A DNA stretch of 45,531 bases from Escherichia coli (GTDB lineage Bacteria > Pseudomonadota > Gammaproteobacteria > Enterobacterales > Enterobacteriaceae), in the NCBI RefSeq assembly GCF_003334815.1, contig NZ_QOWO01000031.1, one strand, 5' to 3'. The notes beneath the pieces are model-generated. The model was given only the letters and a program-made list of their open reading frames with translations. It had not been told where the DNA came from and made no database searches. A program made the translations under genes and the position numbers. Positions 3,977-5,554 of the stretch are shown piece by piece. Every line of letters starts with the position of its first letter. Positions within the stretch are counted from its first letter, which is position 1.

Positions 3977-5275
3977 TTACTGGCATATATATGTTTTGTT
4001 TTCATCAATAACGTGTTGAAAAGTAATAGTACAGAATAAATTCTGTTCATCATTGAGAGCAACTTTTATGCCAGTTGGAATTTCATCTACGCGAATAAAA
4101 AGGCGACTACCCTGGCCAACGACTCCAATATTGTTTTCCTGGAGATCCAGTACGTCATAGCCAAAGGTTAATGGCGAACCATCGGGACGCAGTGCCTGTA
4201 TATACCAAGGCTTACGTTGGTCAGTTGTAAACTGCACATAAGAAACTGCTCCACGGTAAGGCGCAATAATTTGACGATTGCCCTGCAATTCTGTTTCACT
4301 TTCACTGTTTGCTATATCAAGTACCAGATGGTTTTCACGATGAGGTATAATCGGGTCGTAAACAACCTGGCCTTTGCTGTTTGTTCGGTTGTATTTTTGT
4401 CCATTAATATGCGCGCCTTCTAATCCAGGCGCATCCAGAATTGCAAATGTATCGGATAACTGGTTAGTGATATTAATACCACCGGACCAGACAACTAATC
4501 CACTACTAATACTTCCACCACTTTGCCAGGCGTTTTTAGAATGACTATAGCTGCCATCTATTATGGCGATGGGAGTTCTCCAGCTTAAATTCGTACCAAG
4601 CGAGGTATCATTATTTTGTTGTTGCTGATTAACATATATACCATAATTTAACTGATCATGTTCACCGGCTATGCCAGTAATTCCAGTATTGTTGGAGGAA
4701 TAGCCATCTTTGGAAAATGAGGTCGAATTCGATAAGTTAATTTGGTGACGTGTTTTGGCAATATCATCCCCCCAGTAGAAAGGAATGGAGATAAACAGAT
4801 TAAAACGCTCCTCTTCTTTATTATTTTCATCATAAGATTGGCTGGCAGAGAAAGTATAACTAATGTGTTGCCAGTTATTGGAGTAACTGAATTGGTAATC
4901 TTTAGCATTTCCACTTCGCCCCCAGTAATTCCGCCAAAGCGCACTTAATGATACATTTCCCAGATTATTGGATAAAGGTTGCATAATATTGGCAGAAAGG
5001 CTATTTTTTCTGCCAATATCATAAAAATCATTATAATCACTCTGATGATAGTGTTTATCATTTTCGTAAAGATGGTCGCTGAATGTCCTGTAATCCTGCG
5101 AAGCATAACGCCAGGCGGCCACGCTAAATCGAGTGGCTGTTTGTACTAGATATTTATTATAGGCGACCTGATAGCTCGTACCTTCGTGTCTGGTATCATT
5201 ATTTAACTTACTACTCGATCGGGCAGCGTAAAAAGAGATGGCACCCAGCGGTGTATTCCAACCATTTCCCAGAGT
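3977..5275 (-). pseudogene. C-terminal portion of a fimbrial outer-membrane usher (FimD/PapC family); N-terminal half missing
   Basis: The 381-aa ORF 3977..5122 ends with usher-type C-terminal sequence (…YVQFTTDQRKPWYIQALRPDGSPLTFGYDVLDLQENNIGVVGQGSRLFIRVDEIPTGIKVALNDEQNLFCTITF…). By hand translation the frame stays open upstream to a stop at 5276-5278, with no further usher-like sequence beyond. A full usher is ~800+ aa; this is about half. Confidence 0.65.
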
Positions 5276-5554
5276 TATAGCCTTATAGTTATCGGATAAA
5301 ATCGTACCCGATTATGTGATCAGGTTGTTATTATTTAGATTAATGTTTAAATTTTTTAATTTCTTGATGTGAAGTTGATGAAAGTTTAATATTCTTAATT
5401 ATTCCCTTCTTTATAAGAAGAGCAAGGTGCCATTATTAGAGTGAGAGAGTAGGATGTTTCAGAGTATGCTTCAGATTATTTTTTATTCCTCTGTAGTGAA
5501 TTAATAATCATCACAGTTAATTTCATTCTGAAATTACTTCTTTTTTGAGATTTT

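Follow-up and report, generated by a model that had tools for sequence, protein, structure and literature searches.

On comparative grounds, the sequence at 3977-5308 of the window (the whole 45,531-nt stretch of Escherichia coli DNA under analysis) is best interpreted as a non-functional usher pseudogene, the remnant of a Yeh-like gamma4 operon, left by one 2,445-bp deletion; we put the probability of this reading at about 0.93. The fimbrial cluster at this locus, between nhaR and rpsT and beside espX1, is the one described as "Yeh-like" (gamma4). Genes hokC/sok, nhaA and nhaR are found at the start of the window, and rpsT, ribF and ileS beyond the island, which identifies the window as the start of the E. 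coli chromosome map. The features relevant to the argument are the following:

3977-5308, minus strand: usher pseudogene remnant, codons 374-816 plus the stop of an 816-aa Yeh-like (gamma4) chaperone-usher usher.
5306-5308, no strand: deletion junction, a 3-bp microhomology reading ACC on the plus strand and GGT, the Gly374 codon, on the coding strand.
3005-3964, minus strand: gene closing the operon, in the position of the tip adhesin; its ORF of 319 aa is intact and begins with a signal-peptide-like N-terminus.
5309-5554, minus strand: 5' intergenic (regulatory) region of the operon, retained, collinear with 5356-5608 of the intact locus L001.
5555-6975, minus strand: espX1 (type III effector, pentapeptide repeats), a pseudogene in the window.

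The remnant measures 1,332 bp, and consists of 443 codons plus a stop, running from Gly374 of the intact usher to the terminal TAA at 3979-3977 identified by frame translation. The preliminary description had seen in it only the C-terminal half of an usher ending at 3977, and Pfam agrees; the stop holds, but the proposed extent, about 430 codons from about 5275, falls short of the 443 codons counted from 5308. Usher homology of the region is far beyond chance. The Usher match (PF00577, E=2.6e-83) starts only at position 201 of the model and extends to its end at 549; PapC_C (PF13953, E=3.6e-9) is matched at residues 370-431. PapC_N (PF13954), identified by Pfam at residues 24-159 of the intact ortholog, is absent from the remnant, and so is a complete Usher beta-barrel, whereas the intact ortholog covers model positions 2-549. 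Retained are the distal two thirds of the beta-barrel and the C-terminal domain; the start codon, the signal peptide, the N-terminal domain, the plug and the first third of the barrel are missing, and the ORF, with 443 of 816 residues, does not cover the whole usher. The NCBIfam model NF011763 (PRK15217) gives the remnant 779.5 bits (profile positions 376-826), short of the curated cut-off of 933, which the intact ortholog exceeds with 1486.9 bits; what remains is hence part of a genuine member of the subfamily. Its amino acid sequence is 96.4% identical to the corresponding part (residues 374-816) of the L001 usher, and the identity ranges from 96 to 97% when the C-terminal 443 residues of intact ushers are considered. 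NCBI PGAP labels the remnant, for instance in ATCC 8739, as "usher, incomplete, missing N-terminus". An in-frame TAA (5314-5312), residing in the AT-rich spacer 5309-5554, precedes it. The earliest candidate start in the remnant frame is a GTG at 5122, no ATG, GTG or TTG occurring before, and the sequence which follows this GTG (MAAWRYASQDYRTF...) lacks a hydrophobic leader or signal sequence.

The intact operon has been described here in loci L001 (strain CLSC36) and L003 (UTME-1), where it encodes on the minus strand a 177-aa major subunit, a 227-aa chaperone (4042-4725 in L001), the 816-aa usher and a gene of the 319-aa type. Pfam domains PapC_N, Usher and PapC_C map in the full-length usher at residues 24-159, 176-733 and 743-804, respectively. 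Compared with solved structures of FimD and PapC ushers (6e14, 3rfz and 7lhg), the protein aligns end to end with both FimD (6e14; E=4e-114) and PapC (E=2.5e-53), the N-terminal domain of FimD being aligned to residues 42-150, and the plug domain of Caf1A (3fcg) to residues 248-328. PapC_N and the plug thus fall within the deleted residues 1-373, and both have been lost from the remnant.

Alignment to the full-length syntenic ushers maps the endpoint of the truncation. The boundary lies at 5308/5309, inside the interval 5276-5330 suggested by the preliminary description; exactly 2,445 bp are missing with respect to L001 and L003, and no filler bases are present. By blastn, window 2400-5308 corresponds to L001 1-2910, and window 5306-7994 to L001 5353-8043; collinearity resumes with 5309 onward matching L001 5356 onward. 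The left flank reads ...ATCGTACC|GCCAT, the right flank ...TCAAACC|CGATT, and the window ...ATCGTACCCGATT, and the two intact-locus flanks wholly account for the junction, base by base. The deletion took usher codons 1-373 (the 5' 1,119 bp), the chaperone and major subunit genes in their entirety, and the 47 bp that precede the latter. Deletion of the N-terminal domain, the plug and the chaperone gene had been correctly anticipated; the list was incomplete, since the major subunit gene and the 47 bp preceding it are gone as well. A scan of the intact locus with a 7-nt seed revealed no direct or inverted repeats of at least 9 nt at the two breakpoints (L001 2908-2910 and 5353-5355), and neither an IS terminus, nor a target-site duplication, nor foreign DNA was found at the breakpoint. 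Similarly, no recombinase site or inverted repeats reside at the junction, whose ends share only 3 bp. The early impression that no IS end or repeat marks the site is thus upheld, and the search for microhomology and IS scars yielded the ACC trinucleotide and no scar. Usher residues 1-373, the chaperone and the major subunit left no trace in the 45.5-kb window when compared by tblastn in all frames (best E=1.6 to 3.7, the latter being the value of the best chaperone match), and the N-terminal part of the usher is not encoded in another frame.

The DNA immediately upstream of the remnant had been described as a stop followed by AT-rich sequence unrelated to ushers. The observation is correct, but the 5309-5554 region is, judging from its collinearity, the operon's own upstream region, not foreign DNA. 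In L001, positions 5356-5608 separate espX1 from the major subunit gene, and the window's copy of this spacer (26.4% G+C) directly abuts the truncated usher. Scans of 2900-5700 for promoters and terminators gave counts no higher than in shuffled sequence, and a promoter was not located. An 8-bp segment (TTTGAAAA or a variant) at 5384/5385 of the spacer is missing in the window and in five other deletion alleles; the remaining four deletion alleles have it, as do the seven intact alleles analyzed. The indel is a secondary change in a former regulatory region. A terminator-like hairpin on the minus strand (5306-5325) spans the junction, and is formed by ACCTGAT-CACATA-ATCGGGT, followed by ACGATTTTAT. 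It is probably fortuitous, such matches being in the region as frequent as expected in shuffled sequence.

The deletion allele is common. When window 2900-7500 was compared by megablast to 5,426 complete E. coli genomes, all of them matched, 3,600 over at least 80% of the query, and some genomes, those of L001 and L003 included, matched in two pieces spanning about 7.05 kb instead of 4.6 kb. The junction, monitored by a 300-bp probe matched in one piece, is present in 2,426 of the 5,426 genomes (about 45%), the deleted segment in 1,203. The deletion allele resides in strains of phylogroups A (ATCC 8739) and B1 (SE11, 55989), the intact segment in O157:H7 genomes, which belong to phylogroup E; these phylogroups are those given in PMC3559732. 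Other states of the locus occur. In K-12, IS1A has taken the place of everything but 138 bp from the 3' end of the adhesin-position gene, nothing being left of espX1 and the usher; L007 carries IS1B and frameshifts, and lacks the usher 3' end; IS1 and IS2 insertions interrupt the island in matches H1 and H10. A further allele, L006 (strain HH97, NZ_CP116409, 2183-3649), shares the 40-mer of the junction, but identity of its usher remnant drops to 73.6% over 590 nt, the alignment requiring 29 gap openings, and its nhaR too is labelled as truncated; either the allele is heavily degraded, or this region of the assembly is of poor quality.

In the scenario which we favor, a single event of illegitimate recombination between two ACC trinucleotides 2,445 bp apart, plausibly by slipped replication or microhomology-mediated joining, would have removed usher codons 1-373, the chaperone gene, the major-subunit gene and the 47 bp upstream of the latter, and joined the upstream region of the operon to usher codon 374. 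Lacking a start before GTG 5122, a signal peptide, the docking domain and the plug, the product could be neither exported nor form an assembly pore, and the fimbria should not be makeable from the deletion locus. The allele would have then spread to about 45% of sequenced E. coli, phylogroups A and B1 included; homologous recombination would have reshuffled its flanks, and the remnant would be decaying neutrally.

The fate of the remnant was analyzed in ten deletion alleles (the window and nine other loci) and seven intact alleles (n=17), across which the 1,332-nt region aligns without gaps. It is very unlikely that the C-terminal fragment has been kept for some residual function, for example as a protein initiated at the internal GTG 5122. 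The frame is open along the 443 codons, from the junction to the stop, in 8 of 10 deletion alleles, and the mean pairwise pN/pS among them is 0.169, a figure which taken alone would suggest constraint. Yet, the value is similar in intact alleles (0.144), and the comparison is uninformative as a pseudogene test, because the alleles are recombinant mosaics; the low ratio, measured in 17 alleles only, is attributed to old polymorphism shared with intact alleles in mosaic flanks. Private and singleton variants, which are more informative, were for this purpose counted in place of pairwise dN/dS. All private variants include 17 non-synonymous changes and 2 stops versus 16 synonymous changes in deletion alleles, and 14 versus 25 in intact alleles (Fisher p=0.16). 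Singletons amount to 10 non-synonymous or stop versus 3 synonymous changes in deletion alleles, close to the neutral expectation, and 8 versus 15 in intact alleles (Fisher p=0.035). Nonsense mutations of independent origin interrupt the remnant in two of the deletion alleles, L004 (at codon 110) and L012 (at codon 274), and are absent from all seven intact alleles. The in-frame TAA at 5314-5312 and the lack of alternative initiation codons upstream of GTG 5122 also speak against a functional fragment, and a protein started at this GTG, having no hydrophobic signal, could not reach the outer membrane.

The junction 40-mer is identical in all the ten deletion alleles sampled, as in the degraded L006. 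That the same junction formed repeatedly at a deletion hot spot, rather than once, is quite unlikely, though the flanks may be invoked in its favor. Deletion alleles are not monophyletic across the remnant; their flanks are mosaic, and fall into at least two haplotype groups. One group, L004 and L011, has more in common with intact alleles than with the window, and this resemblance stops only about 80 bp short of the junction on its left side, and 45 bp on its right. A single origin consequently needs later recombination, including homoplasy 43 bp from the junction (site 5351). Recurrence is opposed, in turn, by the ends themselves, which share 3 bp and lack any longer repeat, inverted repeat or recombinase site, and by the T at 4823, found in 10/10 deletion and 0/7 intact alleles. 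Differences at 5224 and 5230 are derived, occur in 8 of 10 deletion alleles and in no intact allele, and fit mutations which followed a single deletion. Moreover, the locus decayed otherwise in other strains, by IS1A in K-12, by IS1B and frameshifts in L007. One deletion, followed by mutation and homologous recombination, would best fit the patterns observed in the alignments, recurrence at a 3-bp microhomology being unlikely. The insertions just mentioned, and those of IS1 and IS2 in H1 and H10, show that IS elements strike the island in other strains, and could suggest that the segment was removed by an insertion sequence through adjacent deletion, the element having been lost since. All junction bases derive from intact flanks, however, and the IS terminus, target-site duplication and filler DNA are all absent. 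Such an origin, and the alternative that the truncation is an assembly artefact, are extremely unlikely; the latter is excluded by the identical junction in 2,426 independently assembled complete genomes.

The gene at the adhesin position has survived the loss of its own chaperone and usher. Its product is annotated by PGAP as "fimbrial family protein" or "hypothetical protein", and had no match in Pfam, NCBIfam or PDB sequence searches. In the alleles sampled the gene is broken in 3 of 7 intact operons and 3 of 10 deletion alleles. An A7 tract (T7 on the plus strand, 3667-3673) is located near codon 98. With A7 the gene stays in frame in the window and L014; L001 and L003, both of which keep the full operon, have A8 and are frameshifted. 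The tract could be a slipped-strand on/off switch, or merely a mutational hot spot. Pili called "Yhl" (Yeh-like) have been described in a 2026 paper, together with the crystal structure of the adhesin domain of Sakai YhlD, in which W142, S51, V54 and V56 are key residues (PMC12778044). The 319-aa ORF has not been equated with YhlD, as it contains no Trp after the signal peptide to correspond to W142, and has no PDB match. The distribution is a misfit as well, yhlD being reported almost only in phylogroup E (PMC12778044), whereas the query including the 319-aa gene is covered over at least 80% in 3,600 of 5,426 genomes. It is improbable that the deletion allele is held at about 45% by a benefit rather than by drift. 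If the benefit came from the orphan adhesin-position subunit, the upstream region would drive the intact 319-aa gene, and the product would be assembled by the paralogous Yeh machinery; if it came from selected loss of the fimbria, the absence of the Yeh-like fimbria would be favored in phylogroups A and B1.

The second component of the island, espX1, is also decayed in the window. The loss of 1 bp from an A7 run, reduced to A6 (6704-6709) both here and in ATCC 8739, splits the gene into the ORFs 6586-6975 and 5555-6676; other alleles carry different frameshifts, and in several espX1 is intact. The entire nhaR-rpsT island (2970-7250) is low in G+C, the adhesin-position gene measuring 36.8%, the usher remnant 39.9%, the spacer 26.4% and espX1 31.9%, against 50.8% of the window. 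The island is missing in many E. coli genomes, and among the matches listed H24-H29 cover the flanking rpsT only, H30 nhaR only. Low G+C content and patchy presence fit a horizontally acquired island made of the fimbrial operon and espX1. Elsewhere in the window, matches above the Rfam gathering score correspond to sok antitoxin RNA over hokC/mokC (248-400, minus strand), ES003 sRNA (16194-16246, plus strand) and naRNA4 (21422-21492, plus strand), all of which are to be expected in this chromosomal region of E. coli.

The remnant is a common, ordinary pseudogene allele of a cryptic fimbrial operon, already flagged in public annotation. Carriers should be, as predicted from gene content, unable to make Yeh-like fimbriae. 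The published primers for the Yeh-like usher (PMC8249706) have exact matches in L003 (3102-3120 and 3770-3789), at a distance of 688 bp equal to the size published for the product. Since the window has lost the DNA holding both sites, the PCR should score carriers as negative. Half of the usher gene, and the gene at the adhesin position, are nevertheless still there in carriers. The ACC junction at 5308/5309 represents a simple binary marker. The junction allele, the IS1A state of K-12 and the complete absence of the island elsewhere illustrate several independent routes of decay of one fimbrial island.

The yeh-like gamma4 cluster comes first in the fimbrial list of O157:H7 Sakai (PMC7098969), and corresponds to PCN033_0019-0021 in strain PCN033 (PMC4578781). 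The survey of E. coli chaperone-usher systems requires both usher and chaperone, and reports no orphan ushers (Wurpel et al. 2013, PMC3559732); on the definition given there, the deletion allele would not be counted. The window shares with the Yeh-like gamma4 cluster the locus and the usher sequence type on which the PMC3559732 scheme is based, but lacks the major subunit gene, the chaperone gene and the 5' 1,119 bp of the usher. Of the architecture of FimD and PapC, only the distal barrel and C-terminal domain survive in the remnant, which is devoid of the signal peptide, the N-terminal domain (42-150), the plug (248-328) and the first barrel third. Like the K-12 IS1A state, the window allele is a degenerate Yeh-like island between nhaR and rpsT; in contrast to it, it is IS-free, and still contains espX1, the gene at the adhesin position and 1,332 bp of usher sequence. 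The nearest named families in NCBIfam are Yeh (yehDCBA) and Stc, the chaperone of the intact operon resembling StcB (328.8 bits), the major subunit YehD (124.7 bits), and PRK09828 being the second-best match of the usher. Scores below the curated cut-offs (500, 136 and 830, respectively) indicate a paralogous operon, not Yeh or Stc itself, and the operon resides at a locus different from those of Yeh in E. coli and Stc in Salmonella.
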